DNA from: a virus
Lineage: Duplodnaviria > Heunggongvirae > Uroviricota > Caudoviricetes
Length of the DNA: 39,184 bases
Virus record (IMG/VR): IMGVR_UViG_2693429536_000016
Direction: 5' to 3' (one strand)
Positions 7,578 to 17,944 of the stretch are shown in pieces; position 1 is the first letter of the stretch; each line of letters begins with the position of its first letter. The notes beneath the pieces were generated by a model that was given only the letters and a program-made list of their open reading frames with translations, was not told where the DNA came from and ran no database searches. Position numbers and translations under genes: made by a program.

Positions 7578-8231
7578 TCAAAAATCCATTATTACTTGTT
7601 TGACAAGACCAACTATTCTGCAGTTCTCACCGCATTCAATAGTTTTATAGTTAGGATTTAGTGGGACGAGATACCTGTTCGGCCAGTCCTCAACAAATTT
7701 TTTGAGTGTCGCTTCTTGCCCACCATTGATATGGGCAACAACGATTTTTCCGTTAATACACTCTGTATCAATAATATCTGGCTCTACGATAACGATAGAA
7801 CCTTCTGGTATCGATGGTGAGCCGAGGGGATTGGTCATTGAATCACCACGGACCCGTAGTGCAAATGCCATTTCTGATACAAGGGCGGTAGTATAAACCC
7901 ACTCTTCAGCATCTTCTTTCCTGACACCAGGCTCCGTCATTGTCCATGAACCCGCCTGAACCCACGAGATGAGGGGGACTTTTTTAACTGCGAATATTTC
8001 AGGTTTTAGATTTATCTTTGGTTCAGGCGAGCCTTTTCCGCTAACAAGCCACAGAGGATCGCATTTAAGTGCGTTGGCTAGGGCTTGAAGGTTGGCTCCA
8101 TTTGGTTGGTAGTCGTCCTTTTCCCATCCAGTAACCGTGACACGGTTCACACCAGTCAAATCAGCCAGTGCTTGTTGTGTCAGGTTCAGTTCTTTTCGCC
8201 TTTGGCGAATACGATCACTCATGTTCATCAT
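7578..8231 (-). CDS. cI: CI-type prophage repressor (N-terminal XRE HTH + C-terminal LexA/S24-like autopeptidase domain)
   Basis: HTH ...LNLTQQALADLTGVNRVTVTGWE...; C-terminal ...VRGDSMTNP... and ...KIVVAHINGGQEATLKKF... consistent with S24 Ser/Lys dyad fold; divergent from cro and flanked by operators. Start is one of the Met codons at 8231/8228/8222. Confidence 0.85.
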   Translation of the reverse strand: MMNMSDRIRQRRKELNLTQQALADLTGVNRVTVTGWEKDDYQPNGANLQALANALKCDPLWLVSGKGSPEPKINLKPEIFAVKKVPLISWVQAGSWTMTEPGVRKEDAEEWVYTTALVSEMAFALRVRGDSMTNPLGSPSIPEGSIVIVEPDIIDTECINGKIVVAHINGGQEATLKKFVEDWPNRYLVPLNPNYKTIECGENCRIVGLVKQVIMDF

Positions 8232-8294
8232 GTAGGCAATCCTACCACATGCCAATGTAGGATTCTTGACATTGGTATGTTGGATATCCTACAT
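8230..8294 (+). promoter_or_regulatory. OR-type tripartite operator with rightward promoter (pR candidate)
   Basis: Three related 18-bp sites: 8230-8247 (ATGTAGGCAATCCTACCA), 8255-8272 (ATGTAGGATTCTTGACAT), 8277-8294 (ATGTTGGATATCCTACAT); TTGACA at 8266-8271 and CTACAT at 8289-8294 with 17-nt spacer; cro ATG at 8327. Confidence 0.55.
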
Positions 8295-8326
8295 TTCTGC
8301 TTAACGTAATTTAACGGGAGACAGAA

Positions 8327-8524
8327 ATGCGGAAATCCGACGTGATTAATTATTTCGGCGGAGTTTGTAAAACCGCCGAAGCCCTAGGTATTAAGCATCC
8401 GTCTGTTTCAGAGTGGCCTGAGATTATTCCTGAAGGCCGAGCGTACCAGTTAGAAAAAATTACTAACGGAAAACTGAAAGTTGACGTGTCTTTATATCAA
8501 AAGACTAACAGTGCTGCGGCATAA
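8327..8524 (+). CDS. cro: Cro-like small DNA-binding regulator
   Basis: 65-aa ORF divergent from cI, RBS GGGAG; size and position match Cro/YdaS-like proteins. Confidence 0.65.
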   Translation: MRKSDVINYFGGVCKTAEALGIKHPSVSEWPEIIPEGRAYQLEKITNGKLKVDVSLYQKTNSAAA

Positions 8525-9130: not shown

Positions 9131-9732
9131 ACAGTTTAACGGCAAATAACCGTTTGTCGCAACAGCTGGTGGTCAGTGTCGCTGAACACCTGTTGTTACG
9201 GCATGAATGCAGATTACCAAATCACCTGGCTGTAAGTAACCACAGAGAACTTTACCTGACTGTGGGGGGCGAGTTGTGCAGGAACTTAACCGCTGGTTTC
9301 GTGATGGAAGAGGGCTTTATGTCCATGTTATTCGTTGGGAGCCAGAAACACAGCGCGTTATCTATCTTCGCAAAGACTACCCGCATGAGTGCTTTAGTCC
9401 TTTGTGGAAATTCAGGCGTGATTTTGTTGAGTGTGAAGGACCACCAGCACATTGATTCTGCCATTCCGGGACGTTACACTGTTCAGGCACCTTATAAAGC
9501 GGGTGCCGGGATTGGCGTCCTGAAATTGATTACTGAGCATAACCGCGCTCATGCGGTTTTTTCGTGTCATGAGCATTGCTACGCCCAAATTATGGTGGGG
9601 CGTACAGGGCCGACTTCGGTCGGGCCGGGTTCGGTAGTCTCCGGTAACGCCAACCCTGTACGTCTCACCACCTCTGTGATTGGCGTCCCATGTGGTGAGT
9701 TTTCTAAAAAACTGACTACCGGGGCTGTCACT

Positions 9733-10290
9733 ATGACTACTCTCCCAACCCTCTCTCAACCTGAAATTGCCATCGTTGATGGTCAGGCTGTTACATCTTC
9801 TTTGGCTGTTGCTGACTTCTTCTCTAAACGTCATGACGATGTTCTGAAAAAGATTCGCATTTTGGATTGTTCTCCAGAGTTTTGTGCCCGCAATTTTGCG
9901 GAGACATCAATTTTGGTACGCCAGCCCAACGGCGGTACTCGCAAACTACCTTGCTATCAAATAACCCGCGATGGCTTTGCGTTTCTTGCTATGGGTTTCA
10001 CGGGTAAACGTGCTGCCCAGTTCAAAGAGGCATACATCAATGCCTTTAACCAGATGGAGAAACAGCTTTCAAAGCCCGCTGTACCGAGCGACGTTGCACA
10101 TAACGCCAGTGTTCTCTATTCCTACATTTCATCAATTCATCAGGTCTGGTTGCAGCAGCTTTATCCCATGCTGGAAAAAGCTGAATCACCTCTGGCTGTA
10201 AGTCTGTATGACCGAATTAACGATGCGGCATTTCTTGCCCGTCTTATTCATTCGTCGCTGAACTCTTCAGAGGTAAGGGGGCGCAAATGA
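9733..10290 (+). CDS. Rha-family phage regulatory protein (antirepressor-like)
   Basis: Internal start MTTLPTLSQPEIAIVDGQAV... with conserved-looking ...PCYQITRDGFAFLAMGFTGKRAAQFKEAYINAF...; the ORF-track upstream extension (9127-9732) has poor protein-like composition. Confidence 0.5.
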   Translation: MTTLPTLSQPEIAIVDGQAVTSSLAVADFFSKRHDDVLKKIRILDCSPEFCARNFAETSILVRQPNGGTRKLPCYQITRDGFAFLAMGFTGKRAAQFKEAYINAFNQMEKQLSKPAVPSDVAHNASVLYSYISSIHQVWLQQLYPMLEKAESPLAVSLYDRINDAAFLARLIHSSLNSSEVRGRK

Positions 10291-10511
10291 TCCGGAATAT
10301 TTTCAAACGATTTACCAATCAGACTTTCCGTTGTCCTCGCCCCGGTCAGTGGTACACCACGCCTGCAGGGCATGTTCTACGTGTTAGCCTGGTGGACCGT
10401 GAATGTCAGAAGGTGATTTGTGAACCGCTGGGTCGTAATTACCGCGTCAGTATGCCGCTTATAGCCTTTCGCTCCGGAAAAAACATGAAGCATCTCGGAG
10501 GTGCGGCATGA
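10287..10511 (+). CDS. Hypothetical small protein
   Basis: 74-aa ORF coupled between Rha-like and replication genes. Confidence 0.4.
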   Translation: MIRNIFKRFTNQTFRCPRPGQWYTTPAGHVLRVSLVDRECQKVICEPLGRNYRVSMPLIAFRSGKNMKHLGGAA

Positions 10512-11500
10512 GTCTGTTAATGACATCCCAGCCCATTGTGATAAATCGTGATCTTGCATGCCGTATTGGTCTGAATGAGGCAATTGTGTTGCAGCAGCTT
10601 CATTACTGGCTGAATGAAACGAATTCAGGCACTGAGCATGGCGGAATTCGCTGGGTTTATAACACGACAGAACAGTGGCTGGAGCAGTTTCCGTTCTGGT
10701 CAGAGTCCACTCTGAAACGCACATTTGCAAGCCTGAAATCACTTGGGGTTTTGCGTCGCGAGCAACTCAATAAATCGAAGCGTGACATGACCAACTTCTA
10801 CACGATCAACTATGAAAGTGAGCTTTTAGAAGAGGTCAAAGTGAACGAATCCATCAGGTCAAAATGCACTTCTCCATCGGGTCAAAGTGACCTGATGGAT
10901 GGGCGCAAAATGACACGATCCATTGGTTCAAAACGACACGCTGTCATCGGGTCAAAATGGCCCAATGATCTTACAGAGAATACAACAGAGATTACTACAG
11001 AGAATAAAACCTCTTCTCGTCCGGACGCTTCGCAACCGGACACGCAAACGGCTGAACAGGAGTTTTTAACTCGCCATCCTGATGCGGTTGTATTCAGCCC
11101 TAAAAAGCGCCAGTGGGGAACGCAGGATGATTTGACCTGCGCACAGTGGCTCTGGAAAAAAATCATCGCCCTGTACGAGCAGGCCGCCGAATGTGACGGC
11201 GAGGTGGTTCGTCCCAAAGAACCGAACTGGACAGCATGGGCAAACGAAATTCGCCTGATGTGTGTGCAGGATGGTCGTACTCACAAACAAATCTGCGAGA
11301 TGTACAGCCGCGTCAGCCGTGATCCGTTCTGGTGCCGTAACGTGCTCAGCCCGTCGAAGTTGCGGGAAAAATGGGATGAGCTTTCCCTGCGCTTATCGCC
11401 GTCCGTCAGCACGCACACAGAAAAACGTGAAGACCCGTACTTCAAAGCCAGTTACGACAACGTGGACTACAGCCAGATCCCGGTAGGATTCAGGGGGTGA
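10508..11500 (+). CDS. Replication initiator, lambda O-like replisome organizer
   Basis: RBS GGAGG; N-terminal region typical of phage replisome-organizer proteins; contains an internal iteron array followed by an AT-rich stretch, as in lambda O/ori. Confidence 0.55.
   Translation: MSLLMTSQPIVINRDLACRIGLNEAIVLQQLHYWLNETNSGTEHGGIRWVYNTTEQWLEQFPFWSESTLKRTFASLKSLGVLRREQLNKSKRDMTNFYTINYESELLEEVKVNESIRSKCTSPSGQSDLMDGRKMTRSIGSKRHAVIGSKWPNDLTENTTEITTENKTSSRPDASQPDTQTAEQEFLTRHPDAVVFSPKKRQWGTQDDLTCAQWLWKKIIALYEQAAECDGEVVRPKEPNWTAWANEIRLMCVQDGRTHKQICEMYSRVSRDPFWCRNVLSPSKLREKWDELSLRLSPSVSTHTEKREDPYFKASYDNVDYSQIPVGFRG
10834..11010 (+). repeat. Putative origin of replication: six ~23-bp tandem iterons (GGTCAAAaTGaCAC...CATC) followed by AT-rich repeats
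   Basis: Direct repeats beginning ~10834, 10857, 10879, 10902, 10925, 10949; then ACAGAGAATA-type AT-rich repeats at 10973-11010, all inside the O-like gene. Confidence 0.5.
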
Positions 11501-11991
11501 TCATGAGTCTTTTGAATGAAGTTCAGAAATTCATTGAAGCCCATCCGGGGTGTACTTCCGGAGACATTGCGGATGCTTTTGCAGGTTACTCACGGCAGCG
11601 CGTTCTGCAGTCTGCAAGCAAGTTACGTCAGAGTGGGCGTGTGGCTCACCGTTGTGAAGGAGATACACGCAGACATTTCCCACGCCTGACTGAGAGAGCG
11701 CAGGAGCCGGAACCACAACCAGTTCGTGAAACCAGACCTGTGCGCAATTTCTATGTCGGCACTAACGATCCCCGGGTGATTTTGTGCCTGACCCGCCAGG
11801 CTGAAGAACTGGAGTCAAGGGGCTTATACCGTCGTGCTGCAACCGTGTGGATGGCGGCATTCCGTGAAAGCCACTCCCAGCCAGAACGAAACAATTTTCT
11901 GGCGCGTCGTGAGCGGTGCTTACGGAAAAGCAGCAAGCGCGCTGCATCAGGTGAAGAGTGGTATCTATCAGGGAATTACGTGGGGGCTTAA
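11497..11991 (+). CDS. Hypothetical protein (possibly PerC-like regulator; weak)
   Basis: 164-aa ORF (likely start ATG 11503); contains ...GLYRRAATVWMAAF... reminiscent of PerC-family activators; low certainty. Confidence 0.4.
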   Translation: MIMSLLNEVQKFIEAHPGCTSGDIADAFAGYSRQRVLQSASKLRQSGRVAHRCEGDTRRHFPRLTERAQEPEPQPVRETRPVRNFYVGTNDPRVILCLTRQAEELESRGLYRRAATVWMAAFRESHSQPERNNFLARRERCLRKSSKRAASGEEWYLSGNYVGA

Positions 11992-12644
11992 TGAGTAATA
12001 AATATTGCCAGGCGCTGGTGGAACTGCGGAACAAACCAGCCCATGAACTGAAGGAAGTGGGCGATCAGTGGCGCACGCCGGACAACATTTTCTGGGGAAT
12101 TAACACCCTGTTTGGCCCGTTTGTTCTGGATCTGTTCACTGATGGTGATAACGCCAAATGTGCCGCTTATTACACTGCGGAAGACAACGCGCTGGCGCAT
12201 GACTGGTCAGAACGTCTTGCGGAGCTTAAAGGTGCTGCCTTTGGTAATCCCCCGTACAGCCGCGCCAGTCAGCATGAGGGGCAATACATCACCGGCATGC
12301 GTTACATCATGAAACATGCCAGTGCTATGCGTGATAAAGGCGGGCGCTATGTTTTCCTGATCAAAGCTGCCACCAGCGAAGTGTGGTGGCCGGAAGATGC
12401 AGACCATATTGCTTTTATTCGCGGGCGTATTGGTTTTGAACTGCCAGCCTGGTTTATCCCGAAGGACGAGAAGCAGGTGCCGACAGGCGCTTTCTTCGCT
12501 GGTGCTATTGCTGTTTTCGACAAGACCTGGAAGGGACCGGCAATCAGCTACATCGGGCGCGATGAACTTGAGGCATGTGGTGAGGCGTTTCTGGCGCAGG
12601 TTCGCCAGCAGGCAGAAAAACTTGTCAGGGAGATGGCGGCATGA
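11991..12644 (+). CDS. Phage DNA N6-adenine methyltransferase (Dam-family, NPPY motif)
   Basis: Start in TAATG overlap with RBS TGGGGG; catalytic motif FGNPPYS; typical size for phage Dam-family enzymes. Confidence 0.75.
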   Translation: MSNKYCQALVELRNKPAHELKEVGDQWRTPDNIFWGINTLFGPFVLDLFTDGDNAKCAAYYTAEDNALAHDWSERLAELKGAAFGNPPYSRASQHEGQYITGMRYIMKHASAMRDKGGRYVFLIKAATSEVWWPEDADHIAFIRGRIGFELPAWFIPKDEKQVPTGAFFAGAIAVFDKTWKGPAISYIGRDELEACGEAFLAQVRQQAEKLVREMAA

Positions 12645-12967
12645 CGACGTTAACTCAATGCCAGCAGCAGGTGCTGGATATGCTGATTTCTTACCAGCAA
12701 GAGCGTGGCTTTCCGCCAACCAATCAGGAGGTGGCAACCATGCTGGGATACCGTTCAGTGAATGCAGCGGTGGAGCATCTTCGCGCACTGGAGAAAAAAG
12801 GCGTCATCACGATAAAGCGTGGCGTGGCCCGGGGGATCACGCTTCATACCGCAGTGAAGGACGACGACAGCGAAGCGGTCGGTATCATCCGCGCACTGCT
12901 TGCCGGTGAGGAGAGCGCCAGGTTGCGTGCAGCCCACTGGTTACATGAGAGGGGCCTGAAAGTATGA
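12641..12967 (+). CDS. LexA N-terminal DNA-binding-domain homolog lacking the peptidase domain
   Basis: 108 aa; QQQVLDMLISYQQERGFPPTNQEVATMLGYRSVNAAVEHLRALEKKGVITIKRGVARGITL aligns closely by eye with the E. coli LexA winged-helix domain (recalled sequence); no S24 domain follows. Confidence 0.6.
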   Translation: MTTLTQCQQQVLDMLISYQQERGFPPTNQEVATMLGYRSVNAAVEHLRALEKKGVITIKRGVARGITLHTAVKDDDSEAVGIIRALLAGEESARLRAAHWLHERGLKV

Positions 12968-13353
12968 AGTTGATCCTTCCTTTCCCGCCCAGTGTGAACA
13001 CGTACTGGCGACACCCCAACAAAGGGGCATTTGCTGGTAAGAGCCTGATAAGCGAGGCGGGGCGAAAATTTCAGAGCGCGGCGTGCGCAGCAATAGTTGA
13101 GCAGTTACGTCGTCTGCCGAAACCAACGTCGGCACCTGCTTCAGTGGAGATCGTGTTGTTTCCGCCGGATAACCGGATCCGTGATCTGGACAACTATAAC
13201 AAGGCGCTGTTTGACGCCCTGACCCACGCGGGTGTGTGGGAAGACGACAGACAGGTGAAAAGAATGCTGGTGGAGTGGGGACCGGTTATCCCGAAAGGGA
13301 AGGTCGAGATCACTATCAGTAAGTACGAGAAAACGGCGGGTGCAGCCGCCTGA
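12964..13353 (+). CDS. rusA: RusA Holliday junction resolvase
   Basis: 129 aa; conserved acidic motif ...RIRDLDNYNKALFDALT... and overall size typical of RusA. Confidence 0.85.
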   Translation: MKLILPFPPSVNTYWRHPNKGAFAGKSLISEAGRKFQSAACAAIVEQLRRLPKPTSAPASVEIVLFPPDNRIRDLDNYNKALFDALTHAGVWEDDRQVKRMLVEWGPVIPKGKVEITISKYEKTAGAAA

Positions 13354-13372
13354 TTAAGAGGAGAAACGAAGT

Positions 13373-14182
13373 ATGAATAATCTGATGGTCATTGATGGTA
13401 TTGAAGTTCGTCGTGATGCTTATGGGCGTTACAGCCTGAACGATCTGCATCGCGCAGCAGTAGCATCTGGTGCAAATGCCAGAACCAAGGAGCCAGGAAA
13501 GTTTCTTTCCAGCCAACAAACTGTTGAGCTTGTTCATGAATTGACCAACACCCAGAATTTGGGTGTTGACCCGGTGAGTGTGATTCATGGGGGAAATGAA
13601 CGGGGAACGTATGTCTGCAAGGAACTGGTGTATGCCTATGCAATGTGGATCAGCCCGTCATTCCATCTGAAGGTGATCCGTACTTTCGACATGGTAACCA
13701 GCGCACCGGAAAAATTATCCGGACAGGCTGCTGACAAGATGCAGGCTGGTGTGATTCTGCTGGACTTTATGCGCCGGGAATTAAACCTGTCTAACTCTTC
13801 AGTGCTTGGTGCCTGTCAGAAACTCCAGGAGGCTGTTGGCTTACCGAATCTGGCACCGCGCTATGCCATTGATGCTCCTGCTGACGCGCCTGATGGCTCA
13901 AGCCGCCCCACGCTGTCACTGAGTGCACTGCTGAAGCAGTATGGTATCCGCCTGACAGCTAATCAGGCATATCACCAGATGGCGAAGCTGGGGATCGTTG
14001 AACAACGTGAACGATACAGCCGCACTGCGATTAACAACATCAAAAAATTCTGGTCGCTGACAGCGAAAGGCTGCATGTTCGGCAAGAACATCACCAGTCC
14101 CGCAAATCCGCGCGAGACGCAGCCGCATTTCTTCGAATCCCGGTTCCCTGAGCTGTTAAAGCTGCTCGATACCGTTCATTGA
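13373..14182 (+). CDS. KilA-N domain protein (antirepressor-like)
   Basis: RBS AGAGGAGA; N-terminal ~100 aa resemble KilA-N DNA-binding domain (..YSLNDLHRAA..). Confidence 0.5.
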   Translation: MNNLMVIDGIEVRRDAYGRYSLNDLHRAAVASGANARTKEPGKFLSSQQTVELVHELTNTQNLGVDPVSVIHGGNERGTYVCKELVYAYAMWISPSFHLKVIRTFDMVTSAPEKLSGQAADKMQAGVILLDFMRRELNLSNSSVLGACQKLQEAVGLPNLAPRYAIDAPADAPDGSSRPTLSLSALLKQYGIRLTANQAYHQMAKLGIVEQRERYSRTAINNIKKFWSLTAKGCMFGKNITSPANPRETQPHFFESRFPELLKLLDTVH

Positions 14183-14183
14183 G

Positions 14184-15179
14184 GTGACCGTGAGAGCGCT
14201 ACTGACCCCTGAAATTGCCCCGCGTATGGGGATCGTATTGTTCAGGCCAGGTTCAGAGCTGATGCCCCTGTTTATGCAGGGGCGTGTCCTGCTGGAGCCT
14301 GAGCCGGAACGTTATTCATCTTTCGCCAGTGGTGCCGTTCCGGCGGCATCACAACCGCTGGCGGATGATCCTGCCGTTCGGGCCGTGTTCCGCAATGAGG
14401 CAGTGATCCGTCGTGCTGGTGGCGTGGAATGTCTTGAAAGCTGGTTACTTCGTGAAAAAGGCTGCCAGTGGCCTCATTCCGACTGGCACAGCGAGAACAT
14501 GACAACAATGCGACACGCGCCGGGCGCAATCCGTCTGTGCTGGCACTGCGATAACCAGCTGCGCGATCAGTTCACGGAACGACTGGAATCAATGGCAACG
14601 GATAACTGTACCCGCTGGGTGTTGTCTGTTGTGCGTCGGGATCTCGGTTTTGATGACAGTCACGTTGTGACAATGCCGGAACTGTGCTGGTGGCTGATTC
14701 GTAATGACCTGGCGGATGCCTTACCGGAAAGTGCAGCCCGTAAGGCACTGAGATTACCGAAGCCTGTTGTGCCGTCTGTCACCCGGGAAAGTGACCTTGT
14801 GCCTTCGGTTCCTGCCACCAGCATCATCCAGGATAAAGCGAAAAAGGTGCTGGCGCTGAAAGTGGATCCGGAGTCGCCGGAGTCTTTTATGTTACGCCCA
14901 AAACGTCGCCGCTGGGTTAATGAAAAGTACACGCGCTGGGTTAAGACACAGCCGTGTGCATGTTGTGGAAAGCCTGCTGATGATCCCCACCACCTGATAG
15001 GTCACGGTCAGGGTGGAATGGCTACAAAAGCGCATGACCTTTTTGTGTTGCCTTTGTGCAGAAAGCATCACGACGAGCTGCATGCGGATACCGTGGCATT
15101 TGAAGAGAAGTATGGCTCCCAGCTGGAGCTGATATTTCGTTTTATCGATCGTGCGCTGGCAATAGGCGTGCTGGCCTGA
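14184..15179 (+). CDS. DUF968-like phage protein with C-terminal Cys/His (HNH-like) motif
   Basis: GTG start; C-terminus PCACCGKPADDPHHLIGH...LCRKHHDELH has CxxC ... HH ... C ... HH spacing typical of HNH/zinc-finger nuclease folds. Confidence 0.5.
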   Translation: MTVRALLTPEIAPRMGIVLFRPGSELMPLFMQGRVLLEPEPERYSSFASGAVPAASQPLADDPAVRAVFRNEAVIRRAGGVECLESWLLREKGCQWPHSDWHSENMTTMRHAPGAIRLCWHCDNQLRDQFTERLESMATDNCTRWVLSVVRRDLGFDDSHVVTMPELCWWLIRNDLADALPESAARKALRLPKPVVPSVTRESDLVPSVPATSIIQDKAKKVLALKVDPESPESFMLRPKRRRWVNEKYTRWVKTQPCACCGKPADDPHHLIGHGQGGMATKAHDLFVLPLCRKHHDELHADTVAFEEKYGSQLELIFRFIDRALAIGVLA

Positions 15180-15196
15180 TTTTGTGGAGAAAGTTG

Positions 15197-15568
15197 ATGC
15201 GTGATATTCAAATGGTTCTTGAACGTTGGGGGGCATGGGTGGCAAATAATCACGAGGATGTGGAATGGTCATCTGTTGCTGCAGGTTTTAAGGGATTAAT
15301 TCCTTCGAAAGTAAAATCCCGCCCGCAATGTAGCGATGACGATGGCCTGATCATTAGCTCTGCGATGACAGTTCTTAAGAAAAAGGAACCGTATCAATAC
15401 GAATTACTGGAAATGTATTATGTGTATGGGGTTACATTACGGGCGTTGGGGGTAAAACTGGGGATATCACTTAATCAGGTTGTTATCAGACTGCAGAAAG
15501 CTGAAGGGTTTATTGACGGTTGTCTGGCAATGTTGGGGGTATCTTTAGAAATTGATTGTTACATATAG
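15197..15568 (+). CDS. Late-gene antiterminator Q-like protein
   Basis: RBS GGAG 8 nt upstream; located directly upstream of the late/lysis region; N-terminus MRDIQMVLERWGAW resembles Q proteins of 21/82-type lambdoids. Confidence 0.55.
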   Translation: MRDIQMVLERWGAWVANNHEDVEWSSVAAGFKGLIPSKVKSRPQCSDDDGLIISSAMTVLKKKEPYQYELLEMYYVYGVTLRALGVKLGISLNQVVIRLQKAEGFIDGCLAMLGVSLEIDCYI

Positions 15569-15643
15569 TAATAAATTCAATCAAAGTAAATAATCATATT
15601 TTATAATAACCTCCTGATGATACCTGTTCATTGGGAGGTTATT

Positions 15644-16261
15644 ATGGATAAAAATGTAGAGCATGTATTAGTTGATGCAATTGAAAATAAGCAATCTTTA
15701 ACAGTCGTTTACTTAGGAGGGAGCCAGCCCGGAACATTAAGGAATATTTCTCCGATTAGTATAAATGGGGATAAGTTGCGGGCAAGATGCCATAGTTCTG
15801 GAGCAGTAAAGGTTTTCAATCTTGGGAAAATACAGTTACCCAGTAACTCCTGCGCGGTATCTATGCACTATGGAGATTTAGAAGTTAAAGCTTATGAGAC
15901 GATGCAGAGCGTAAATGACAACTTTCATGCCCTTTATCCTGAAGGACGATGGGGTGTTGATTTTAATGAGCATCGCTTTGCTTTATTTGATTTTTTTAAA
16001 AACGGGAAACGAAAAAAAACGGCATTTATGGCAATTGAGTTCAGGGAAAGAGATGAAGAGAAAATAATAACAGGTGTAACAATTGATATTGGTATATCTG
16101 GAACAGTGATTTCTGAGAAATCCCGAATCCCAAAAAGACGACCATGGGTAGTGGTTGGTCCCGAACACGGAGAATACAGTACTTATTCAACTTTGGACAA
16201 GGCTGCTACAGCGTTTTTTGAGAGGCTTTCGTTGATAGCATCCGGCCTGGAAGATAATTGA
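15644..16261 (+). CDS. Low-GC moron gene of unknown function between Q and the lysis cassette
   Basis: 206-aa ORF with strong RBS GGGAGG; AT-rich relative to flanking phage genes; start codon and RBS lie within a 12-bp inverted repeat (15603-15614 / 15634-15645). Confidence 0.55.
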   Translation: MDKNVEHVLVDAIENKQSLTVVYLGGSQPGTLRNISPISINGDKLRARCHSSGAVKVFNLGKIQLPSNSCAVSMHYGDLEVKAYETMQSVNDNFHALYPEGRWGVDFNEHRFALFDFFKNGKRKKTAFMAIEFRERDEEKIITGVTIDIGISGTVISEKSRIPKRRPWVVVGPEHGEYSTYSTLDKAATAFFERLSLIASGLEDN

Positions 16262-16392
16262 TTTTATGTTTGGTATTCAGAGTTCGCCGTGCTTAAGAAA
16301 GTCAAGATTCTAAAAATACTGAATGAGCTACTTGTGTTATAACAAAAATGCTATTAGTGTGTTAAGAGTGGTTACTTCGCCACACAACTTAA

Positions 16393-16416
16393 ACCCGCCA
16401 CTGAGCGGGTTTTTTG
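16393..16416 (+). terminator. Rho-independent terminator (candidate tR' / moron terminator)
   Basis: ACCCGC cactga GCGGGT followed by TTTTTT. Confidence 0.6.
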
Positions 16417-16513
16417 TACCTGTAAACTTGGTGCAGTACAGTAAACACGCTGGTGGTCGTGAATACTGACTTTTTATCTTGCTGGCTTTTTAGACAAGAG
16501 TTATTGGTATGTC

Positions 16514-16741
16514 ATGTTAACCAGAAGGGAAAAAGACATGCTAAAACAGCAAGATATGACAGAAACCGCCGCCGCAGTCCTTCATTTCTTACCTGCTGAC
16601 AAGTGGGTAACGCCACGCATGATGACGAGAACTACCGGAGTAAGCGAAGCCCGGTGCCAGTTAATACTGACTCAGTTAGTTCTGGCGGGGCTGGCGAAGG
16701 ATAACGGCGGGTACGGGAATAAATTCAGACGCTGCCAGTAA
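16514..16741 (+). CDS. Small winged-helix-like DNA-binding protein (PapI/FaeA-like; tentative)
   Basis: 75-aa ORF (alternative start 16538 with AGGGA RBS); C-terminal ...TGVSEARCQLILTQLVLAGLAKDNGGYG... resembles small wHTH regulators. Confidence 0.35.
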   Translation: MLTRREKDMLKQQDMTETAAAVLHFLPADKWVTPRMMTRTTGVSEARCQLILTQLVLAGLAKDNGGYGNKFRRCQ

Positions 16742-16891
16742 TGGCGGTTTCCTGCTGTGAAAATGGGCGGCTGGTGGGTGTTGGTAGCACCTGCCAGCCA
16801 TTCGCTCATGCTTACTGGTCACAAGCGAACCACGGCCCACTGCTTTAGCGCAAAAGCAGAGTGAGCCTACCAGAGTTACGCTTACTGATCC

Positions 16892-17944
16892 ATGAAAAAT
16901 ACTGTAAAAATAAACAGTGTTGATTTAATCAACGCTGATTGCCTGCATTTTATTCAGTCCCTGCCTGATGATTCCATTGACCTGATTGTTACCGATCCGC
17001 CGTACTTCAAGGTGAAACCCAACGGTTGGGACAATCAGTGGAAAGGGGACGAAGATTACCTTAAGTGGCTGGACCACTGTCTGGCCCAGTTCTGGCGGGT
17101 GTTAAAACCTGCCGGAAGCCTTTATCTGTTCTGTGGGCATCGCCTGGCATCTGATATTGAGATCATGATGCGTGAACGTTTCAACGTGCTTAACCATATC
17201 ATCTGGGCGAAGCCGTCCGGACGTTGGAATGGGTGTAATAAAGAAAGTCTGCGCGCATATTTTCCTGCCACAGAGCGCGTTCTGTTTGCTGAACATTACC
17301 AGGGGCCATATCGCGGCAAAAGTGACGGCTATGCAGCAAAAGAAAGGGAACTCAAACAGCACATAATGGCACCGCTGATATCGTATTTCAGGGATGCTCG
17401 TGCCGAACTGGGTATAACGGCAAAACAAATTGCCGAAGCCACAGGTAAGAAAAATATGGTTTCCCACTGGTTTGGTGCCAGTCAGTGGCAGTTGCCGAAT
17501 GAGGCTGACTATCGGAAGTTACAGGCACTGTTTTCCCGTATAGCGGCAGAGAAGTTTCAGGAACAACAACTGGAACAACCACACCACCAGCTGGTGGCAT
17601 CTTATGATTCACTGAATCGCAAATATTCTGAATTGCTGGATGAGTTTAAATCTCTCCGGCGCTATTTCTCCGTATCAGTCTCCGTGCCTTATACCGATGT
17701 CTGGACGCATAAACCCGTTCAGTTCTACCCGGGTAAACATCCGTGCGAGAAACCGGCGGATATGCTCCGGCAAATAATCAATGCCAGTAGTCGCCCTGGT
17801 GATCTGGTTGCTGATTTCTTTATGGGATCCGGTTCCACAATAAAAGCAGCAATGGCGCTGGGGCGTCGGGCGTTAGGTGTTGAACTTGAGTCAGAGCGGT
17901 TTAATCAGACGGTGAAAGAGGTAAGTGAACTGGTGGGGAAATAA
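16892..17944 (+). CDS. Orphan DNA methyltransferase (N6-adenine/N4-cytosine, beta-class order: DPPY then FxGxG)
   Basis: Motif IV ...LIVTDPPYF... near N-terminus and SAM-binding motif ...FFMGSGSTIKAA... near C-terminus; no adjacent endonuclease gene evident. Confidence 0.85.
   Translation: MKNTVKINSVDLINADCLHFIQSLPDDSIDLIVTDPPYFKVKPNGWDNQWKGDEDYLKWLDHCLAQFWRVLKPAGSLYLFCGHRLASDIEIMMRERFNVLNHIIWAKPSGRWNGCNKESLRAYFPATERVLFAEHYQGPYRGKSDGYAAKERELKQHIMAPLISYFRDARAELGITAKQIAEATGKKNMVSHWFGASQWQLPNEADYRKLQALFSRIAAEKFQEQQLEQPHHQLVASYDSLNRKYSELLDEFKSLRRYFSVSVSVPYTDVWTHKPVQFYPGKHPCEKPADMLRQIINASSRPGDLVADFFMGSGSTIKAAMALGRRALGVELESERFNQTVKEVSELVGK

Follow-up and report, generated by a model that had tools for sequence, protein, structure and literature searches.

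In a lambdoid prophage of Escherichia coli we analysed a 108-aa protein that descends from the DNA-binding domain of LexA and would work like it, has no autopeptidase domain and carries a two-helix tail of its own. Its gene occupies positions 12641 to 12967 on the + strand of a 39,184-nt stretch of DNA, IMG/VR virus record IMGVR_UViG_2693429536_000016, which we call the window. A first-pass annotation, made from the letters alone, had noticed that the N-terminal ~70 residues match the LexA winged helix and that the S24 cleavage/dimerisation domain is lacking; both halves of this observation are confirmed, far beyond chance. The gene is already known, being annotated in RefSeq, in PHROGs and in phage records, and as a LexA paralog it is no discovery. 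What we have not seen described before is the tail-bearing enterobacterial family to which it belongs, the fixed slot that the family occupies, its R28/E44 signature and its contrast with gp6, a truncated LexA homologue of phage GIL01. We tentatively favour the reading that the protein, insensitive to RecA and produced in lytic growth, may bind SOS-box-like operators of the CTGT type in trans.

A LexA head joined to a two-helix tail

The gene and the parts of its product lie in the window as follows.

12641..12967, + strand: LexA-like gene for the 108-aa protein, an open reading frame (ORF) from ATG to TGA; WP_000210189.1-type 'LexA family transcriptional regulator' in RefSeq; PHROG 362
12641..12850, + strand: winged helix-turn-helix domain, residues 1-70, homologous to LexA residues 1-70 (Pfam PF01726, HMMER, AlphaFold2, Foldseek)
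12755..12796, + strand: recognition helix region, residues 39-52, SVNAAVEHLRALEK, with S39, N41, A42 and E45 as in LexA and E44 replaced by V
12860..12946, + strand: C-terminal two-helix tail, residues 74-102, with I82, I83, L86, L87, A93, A97, W100 and L101 forming a hydrophobic face

Pfam family PF01726 (LexA_DNA_bind) matches the protein end to end (model positions 1-65 of 65; E=2.6e-19; 69.2 bits against a cut-off of 23.7). When PDB sequences were searched with HMMER, the top match was the N-terminal domain (NTD) of E. coli LexA (1lea), with residues 2-70 lying on residues 2-70 without a gap (E=5.8e-16). An AlphaFold2 (AF2) model, for which the input was a 37-sequence family alignment (mean predicted local distance difference test score, pLDDT, 84), has helices at residues 6-22, 28-35 and 40-52 of the head and strands at 56-58 and 66-68, and Foldseek superposed it on 1lea and 3jso at a root-mean-square deviation of 1.0-1.3 Å over 67-68 residues, with ~51% identity.

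A Pfam scan gave no match to Peptidase_S24 in the 108-aa protein even at E<=1; the chain stops at residue 108 and the gene for RusA comes next. Because the autopeptidase domain is absent, LexA-style self-cleavage is impossible. The protein falls outside LexA proper on three counts: it has no S24 domain with the catalytic Ser119/Lys156, it lacks R28 and E44, and the lexA equivalog model of NCBIfam, TIGR00498, covers it over model positions 1-91 of 203 only, at 70.3 bits against a cut-off of 110.95.

E. coli LexA makes its main base contacts through S39, N41, A42 and E45 (PMC11442139); N41 and E45 have also been described as base contacts in a source that has R28 touching the backbone (bioRxiv 10.1101/2020.07.14.201889), and E44 joins the list in an older summary (PMC3091678). 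The window protein shares the fold, S39, N41, A42, E45 and the wing residues R64-G65-I66 with the LexA NTD, and differs from it in having N for R28 and V for E44. Within the curated 37-member family alignment, where overall identity is 40-58%, S39, N41, R64, G65 and I66 are invariant. We counted residues at the remaining contact positions over 31 sequence types, which represent 115 tail-bearing family members. Position 42 is A in 23/31 and S in 5/31, and position 45 is E or D in 25/31. R28 and E44 are found in 0/31, whereas full-length LexAs from the same searches keep R28 in 13/14 and E44 in 12/14. Residues 28 and 44 (12722-12724 and 12770-12772 in the window) are replaced in every clade by co-varying uncharged pairs, N/V, Y/F, L/L, V/A or Q/T; because both positions change together, the alignment suggests that they are in contact and have been remodelled jointly. 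Judged by the same alignments, the reading head is more constrained than the remainder of the protein across prophages of Escherichia, Salmonella, Cronobacter and Kosakonia, which fits a target common to those hosts.

The tail consists of two amphipathic helices, at residues 74-87 and 93-102 of the AF2 model (pLDDT of the block 86-87). A97 and L101 do not vary within the family, which has an aromatic residue at position 100 and hydrophobic ones at 82, 83, 86 and 87. The first-pass annotation had overlooked this tail. Foldseek found no structural relative of the tail in PDB or BFVD. The linker is modelled with low confidence and the predicted TM-score (pTM) is 0.59, so that the model does not place the hairpin on the head with confidence. 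A hairpin of ~30 residues that is hydrophobic on one face cannot be stable by itself; most simply, and most likely, the tail would self-associate, for example as a four-helix bundle, and thereby replace the dimerisation function of the S24 domain.

A fixed slot in enterobacterial prophages

The family was defined from searches of 1.8 and 5.8 billion proteins. Its members measure ~105-135 aa, all have the LexA head and the tail, and they come from Escherichia, Shigella, Salmonella, Citrobacter, Cronobacter, Klebsiella, Enterobacter, Kosakonia, Atlantibacter and Hafnia. The WP_000210189.1 type, PHROG 362, SfV orf42 and Stx-phage pham 237 are the same family under names only: RefSeq has "LexA family transcriptional regulator", and PHROG 362, which matches full-length (1-108 against 1-106 of 106; E=9.4e-59), is called "transcriptional repressor". 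The Stx-phage survey only catalogues pham 237, a gene family with PF01726 alone, among lysis-lysogeny regulators (PMC8136144), and full-text literature searches yielded no functional study of the tail-bearing family. By tblastn the gene is present in 61 phage records, among them SfV (orf42), SfII, SfIV, cdtI, mEp460 and Stx2a and Stx2c phages, and the phage and E. coli records are 94-100% identical. By megablast it is present in 2233 of 5426 complete E. coli genomes, with up to 4 copies per genome.

Gene order around it is conserved in E. coli, Cronobacter, Salmonella and Kosakonia: PerC, a DNA methyltransferase, the LexA-like gene, RusA, a KilA-N or Rha/ANT protein, DUF968 and a Q-like protein. 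The methyltransferase of the slot belongs to Dam PF05869 or D12 PF02086, or is an added C5 PF00145. Protein identity is at least 94% among mosaic phages with differing Q and late/cargo regions (SfV, Stx2a_1447 and this prophage; SfII, cdtI and mEp460 join these carriers by name only), across which the steady neighbours are RusA and, usually, a methyltransferase, and no others. In Klebsiella prophages a perfect LexA box, TACTGTTTATTTATACAGTA, precedes dinI, a small ORF and the homologue, in that order. In those numbered L006-L008 (7385-8393; 1574-3542) the SOS box stands 40 bp 5' of the phage dinI, followed by the small ORF and a LexA-like homologue of 130 aa; the same prophage region holds an AAA_15 + DUF4435 gene pair, which we take to be the domain pair of the PARIS defence system.

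In the window itself, the LexA-like gene is joined to both of its neighbours by 4-nt ATGA overlaps, one between the methyltransferase stop and its own start and one between its own stop and the start of rusA. Given a ratio of nonsynonymous to synonymous substitution rates (dN/dS) of 0.09-0.24 against homologues, the gene is real and under purifying selection. The surrounding features are these.

12628..12633, + strand: Shine-Dalgarno sequence GGGAGA, 7 nt 5' of the LexA-like ATG and within the end of the methyltransferase gene; read from the sequence
11958..12644, + strand: phage Dam-type N6-adenine methyltransferase, the upstream neighbour (Pfam PF05869, E=1.1e-45); the RefSeq start is 33 nt further in
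12964..13353, + strand: RusA Holliday-junction resolvase, the downstream neighbour (Pfam PF05866)
11497-11991: PerC homologue (Pfam, PF06069)
7578..8255, - strand: CI-type repressor, HTH_3 + Peptidase_S24 (Pfam)
8327-8524: Cro (P22_Cro, Pfam)
8266..8295, + strand: pR-like promoter TTGACA-18-TACATT, upstream of cro
16892-17944: N6_N4 DNA methyltransferase of the late region, ahead of the lysis genes (Pfam)

After RusA, Pfam and the ORFs of the window give a KilA-N protein, a DUF968/HNH protein and the antiterminator Q (15182-15568). The genes from 10287 to 15568 abut or overlap, and a promoter scan of the + strand over 9760-13350 gave no promoter-like site. From this packing, the lack of an internal promoter and the pR-like promoter upstream of cro, we infer that the LexA-like gene is carried on the rightward early (pR) transcript and made during lytic development. 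It does not qualify as a cleavable repressor of the CI/LexA type, a role that is filled by the gene at 7578-8255 (-) beside Cro.

Further observations concern the wider region. Two Rfam matches at gathering score, isrK (9487-9563, +) and C4 antisense RNA (9588-9675, +), the latter a control RNA of P1/P7-type antirepressors, fall inside the ORF of a 387-aa protein, called 'Rha family phage regulatory protein' in RefSeq; this arrangement suggests either an RNA-controlled antirepressor module or an over-extended call of the coding sequence. PADLOC returned a sub-threshold CARF match only. A strong intrinsic-terminator-like hairpin, CCCGCCACTGAGCGGG, with a T run lies at 16394-16417, ~800 bp 3' of Q, and a terminator is annotated at the equivalent position in SfV; between Q and this hairpin there is an additional ORF, of 214 aa (15617-16261).

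SOS boxes and the possible target of the protein

The first-pass annotation had proposed scanning the prophage for CTGT-N8-ACAG boxes. Using a position weight matrix assembled from 19 E. coli LexA boxes known in the literature, which is not a curated matrix, we found a single strong LexA box in the window (22.6 bits, within the range of the training boxes; 0/200 shuffles reach the score).

16900..16919, no strand assigned: LexA (SOS) box TACTGTAAAAATAAACAGTG, at codons 3-9 of the late-region N6_N4 methyltransferase; also in loci L017 (10907), L012 (14310) and L018 (14072)

The box is kept in SfV, Salmonella prophages, Klebsiella Kp4866-6, Citrobacter phiNP, Providencia and Morganella phages and Stx2a_1447, and in the Providencia and Morganella phages it persists although the flanks are only 72-77% identical. 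Among 32 phage records with the methyltransferase region, all but ~5 also list the LexA-like gene, going by record name. However, the 61 tblastn records with the LexA-like gene include none from Citrobacter, Providencia or Morganella, so that phiNP of Citrobacter and the phages of the other two genera have the box but not the gene, and many carriers of the gene do not have this methyltransferase. For these reasons the box is best explained as a host-LexA site, to which any SOS-box mimic would bind too. As evidence for the protein's own target we rejected it, the co-occurrence being one of linkage; the proposed scan thus did deliver one strong box, but one that does not point to the LexA-like protein.

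This methyltransferase has features of its own. In Stx2a_1447 the boxed gene is directly upstream of ileZ-argN-argO and stx2AB, and in SfV it sits between annotated terminators, resembling a self-contained inserted cassette (moron). Its non-coding leader (16756-16890) is conserved across genera above the coding sequence and contains two long predicted hairpins; Rfam gave no match at gathering score over 15500-17000, the best being STnc130 (16383-16519, -; 30 bits against 55), and the leader was unmatched. Another perfect LexA box, TACTGTTTTTATATACAGTA (27 bits), is found at 4546-4565 of L018, the Stx2a_1447 locus, inside the annotated cI gene.

How might a RecA-insensitive SOS-box binder work? 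A LexA-type winged helix with retained base-reading residues would read a CTGT-type half-site, which is to be expected because those residues are kept, and the amphipathic two-helix tail would supply the self-association that LexA gets from its C-terminal domain (CTD). The dimer would then sit in trans on palindromes that resemble SOS boxes, both in the host chromosome and in LexA-gated mobile elements; that no operator is linked to the gene, and that the gene moves among mosaic phages, points to a target in trans that is not phage-specific. Because the prophage's own repressor carries an S24 domain, induction should coincide with LexA cleavage; occupancy would thus fall together with the cleavage of host LexA, and LexA-controlled genes would be kept repressed, or re-repressed, independently of RecA*. 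Homology, fold, the missing peptidase domain, the conserved contact residues and tail, the place in the operon and purifying selection are what the analysis shows; a dimer held by the tail, binding to CTGT-type sites, the distance between half-sites, an outcome of repression and a biological benefit are what the scheme proposes.

Several lines of background fit this scheme. Two LexA wings are said to touch in one minor groove, a finding ascribed to Zhang, Pigli & Rice in 2010; if so, the NTD itself would help to set the half-site spacing. The adjacent PerC homologue belongs to a family (PF06069) that takes its name from a transcriptional activator, and prophage PerC/Pch proteins control genes of the host; they would set an example for a host-directed regulator encoded in this part of a prophage. 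The Klebsiella homologue downstream of dinI, behind a perfect LexA box, provides a link to SOS that counts for the favoured reading. So does the contrast with gp6, which recognises another palindrome and has altered these very reading residues (PMC6182141). A further precedent comes from LexA itself, as the free LexA NTD keeps some SOS-box binding and repression and has to be removed by ClpXP (PMC10584840). The NTD left by RecA*-stimulated autocleavage is likewise an isolated head with some SOS-box binding and repression (PMC10584840, PMC3159453), but it is a transient intermediate ending in a ClpX signal, whereas the phage protein is a dedicated product with a conserved C-terminal module of its own.

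A number of points weigh against SOS-box binding. To go by the alignments, the DNA interface is systematically altered, since R28 and E44 are kept in full-length LexAs and gone family-wide here. Some divergent reading helices lack E45 or A42 (SSSNAVLLH in Klebsiella, RSVNTIAGH in Citrobacter, RSQNTVFIH in Salmonella Choleraesuis), and the hosts concerned share one LexA box. The half-site spacing of the putative tail dimer could differ from N8. The one box in the window, as described above, is kept also in phages without the gene. Neither CTGT-Nx-ACAG nor ACAG-Nx-CTGT is enriched in the window at any spacing from x=0 to 24, and one-mismatch SOS cores number 16 against 12.7 expected, which is the chance level. 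In Cronobacter prophages that carry the gene, the 8 kb to each side of it contain no SOS box. The only characterised phage protein that consists of a LexA NTD alone, gp6, binds a non-LexA site (PMC6182141), and the literature that we searched gave no DNA-binding data for any family member.

The idea of an uncleavable SOS-box binder, first raised in the early annotation, therefore survives in part: the autopeptidase domain is missing and the contact residues and wing are kept, but R28/E44 are lost, some reading helices are changed and gp6 has a site unlike that of LexA. The annotation's other suggestion, a dominant-negative LexA, we discarded. It would need heterodimers with LexA and hence CTD function, and LexA dimerisation is a function of the CTD (PMC3159453), with the dimer interface lying in the very domain that is absent here.

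A far-reaching version of the favoured reading, which we think unlikely, would make the protein a RecA-proof SOS repressor, present in ~40% of E. coli genomes, that replaces cleaved LexA upon induction and shuts the regulon again. It would give the phage an off-switch for SOS, by which host mutagenesis and repair would be curbed and LexA-gated competitors silenced; such competitors would include colicins, co-resident prophages under antirepressor control and, in at least one Stx2a phage, the boxed methyltransferase upstream of stx2. In a bolder variant still, S24 peptidases would cleave the AGE-containing tail in trans and turn the protein into a reversible switch.

Alternative readings and the meaning of the family

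Instead of SOS boxes, the protein might recognise a non-SOS operator of its own, as an activator or repressor of phage or host promoters in the manner of GIL01 gp6; this main rival is possible, if rather doubtful. The truncated LexA homologue gp6 is made early, binds GaCACAnnTGTGaC at the -35 region of the late promoter P3 and activates P3, which shows that phage proteins made of a LexA NTD alone can gain new specificity and activate transcription (PMC6182141). In our family R28/E44 are lost in every sequence type, the reading helix varies by clade, and the gene always precedes Q and the late region by a few genes. Stand-alone LexA_DNA_bind proteins are moreover common and widespread in phages of many groups. 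Against an operator of its own, all four main LexA base-contact residues are kept, unlike in gp6, and the DNA that travels with the gene offers no candidate operator: an inverted-repeat scan of 10200-15700 found neither a CTGT-type palindrome nor any other operator candidate in the module around the gene, and the cro/cI immunity operators are of ATGTAGGA type, unrelated to CTGT. The same module has no candidate for a gp6-like -35 site at a late promoter, and Q, which is present, already handles lambdoid late transcription.

The comparison with gp6 can be drawn more closely. Both proteins are phage LexA winged helices without an autopeptidase domain, encoded by early genes, and HHalign aligns them with a probability of 97% over the domain. 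Yet they have no BLASTP similarity, and the profile alignment is confined to the domain, at 33% identity. The Betatectivirus protein is 66 aa long, has no tail and has the reading residues SHKTAHRY, with K38 essential and K at the N41-equivalent position, whereas the window protein keeps the LexA residues. It derives from a Gram-positive LexA, belongs to a tectivirus and has a function shown by experiment. On these comparisons we regard the window protein not as an orthologue of gp6 but as an independently evolved case of a phage truncated LexA homologue. From E. coli LexA it is set apart by the missing S24 domain and catalytic Ser/Lys, the two substitutions at 28 and 44, the added tail of 35 residues and its place in a phage early lytic operon. 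Four other proteins, P0128, P0135, P0155 and P0158, have two tandem LexA_DNA_bind domains per chain and no S24 domain, and could be single-chain pseudo-dimers of the LexA head.

That the regulator is coupled to the methyltransferase upstream, either as a controller-type protein or as a buffer of the damage signal from foreign methylation, we consider very improbable. The upstream neighbour is a methyltransferase in the E. coli window, SfV, Stx2a_1447, Cronobacter, Salmonella and Kosakonia, it is drawn from the three unrelated families named above, and the start and stop codons overlap or lie close. However, in SfIV, H111 and H113 the gene stands beside PerC with no methyltransferase listed under the match, and Klebsiella prophages have dinI and an ORF of unknown function in that place. 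That one position should be filled by varying genes is usual in mosaic phages, and upstream of the Dam-type methyltransferase the sole operator-like palindrome, at 11512-11538, is unrelated to CTGT.

Slightly less probable again is an action at the protein level, with the tail segment GIIRALLAGEE mimicking the hinge/cleavage region VGRVAAGEP of LexA; the protein would then be a pseudo-substrate or trans-cleavable substrate of S24 peptidases (LexA, UmuD or phage CI), or a decoy for RecA* or ClpXP. In the HMMER alignment the match to LexA runs on as far as residue 90, which sets A88-G89 opposite the scissile A84-G85 of LexA, and 'AGE' is the majority motif among family tails. In divergent clades, however, A88-G89 is replaced by ER, TR, DD, CS, AE, AN or VG, the segment is modelled by AF2 with good confidence as helix and not as extended strand or loop, no catalytic domain is present in cis, and the invariant positions of the family are those of the DNA-binding head. 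We thus set the tail aside as a cleavage-site mimic, keeping it as a low-probability rival only.

A lysogeny or SOS-sensing repressor, as suggested by the phage-record annotations 'SOS-response repressor and protease LexA' and 'transcriptional repressor' and by the listing under lysis-lysogeny regulators in the Stx-phage survey (PMC8136144), or a decaying relic of a captured lexA, is effectively refuted: the gene is not the immunity repressor, since a separate HTH_3 + S24 repressor lies at 7578-8255 with Cro beside it (7578-8524), the LexA-like protein has no S24 domain and its gene belongs to a rightward early operon, while the low dN/dS and the conservation across genera exclude decay.

An abundant gene for which we found no functional study in the literature thus leads to two outcomes, either of which can be reached by simple experiments. 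If the protein has an operator of its own, phages would have captured a LexA head and turned it into a regulator for a second time, independently, and the case would inform how the specificity of winged helices drifts. If it binds SOS boxes, many E. coli, Shiga-toxin strains included, would hold 1-4 copies of a LexA substitute that cannot be cleaved and is turned on when the prophage is induced. SOS-dependent traits of lysogens, namely mutagenesis, persistence, release of colicins and Shiga toxin, and cross-induction of prophages, would then have to be reread, and phages would have a third strategy toward LexA, beside the direct use of host LexA and gp7-type modulation.

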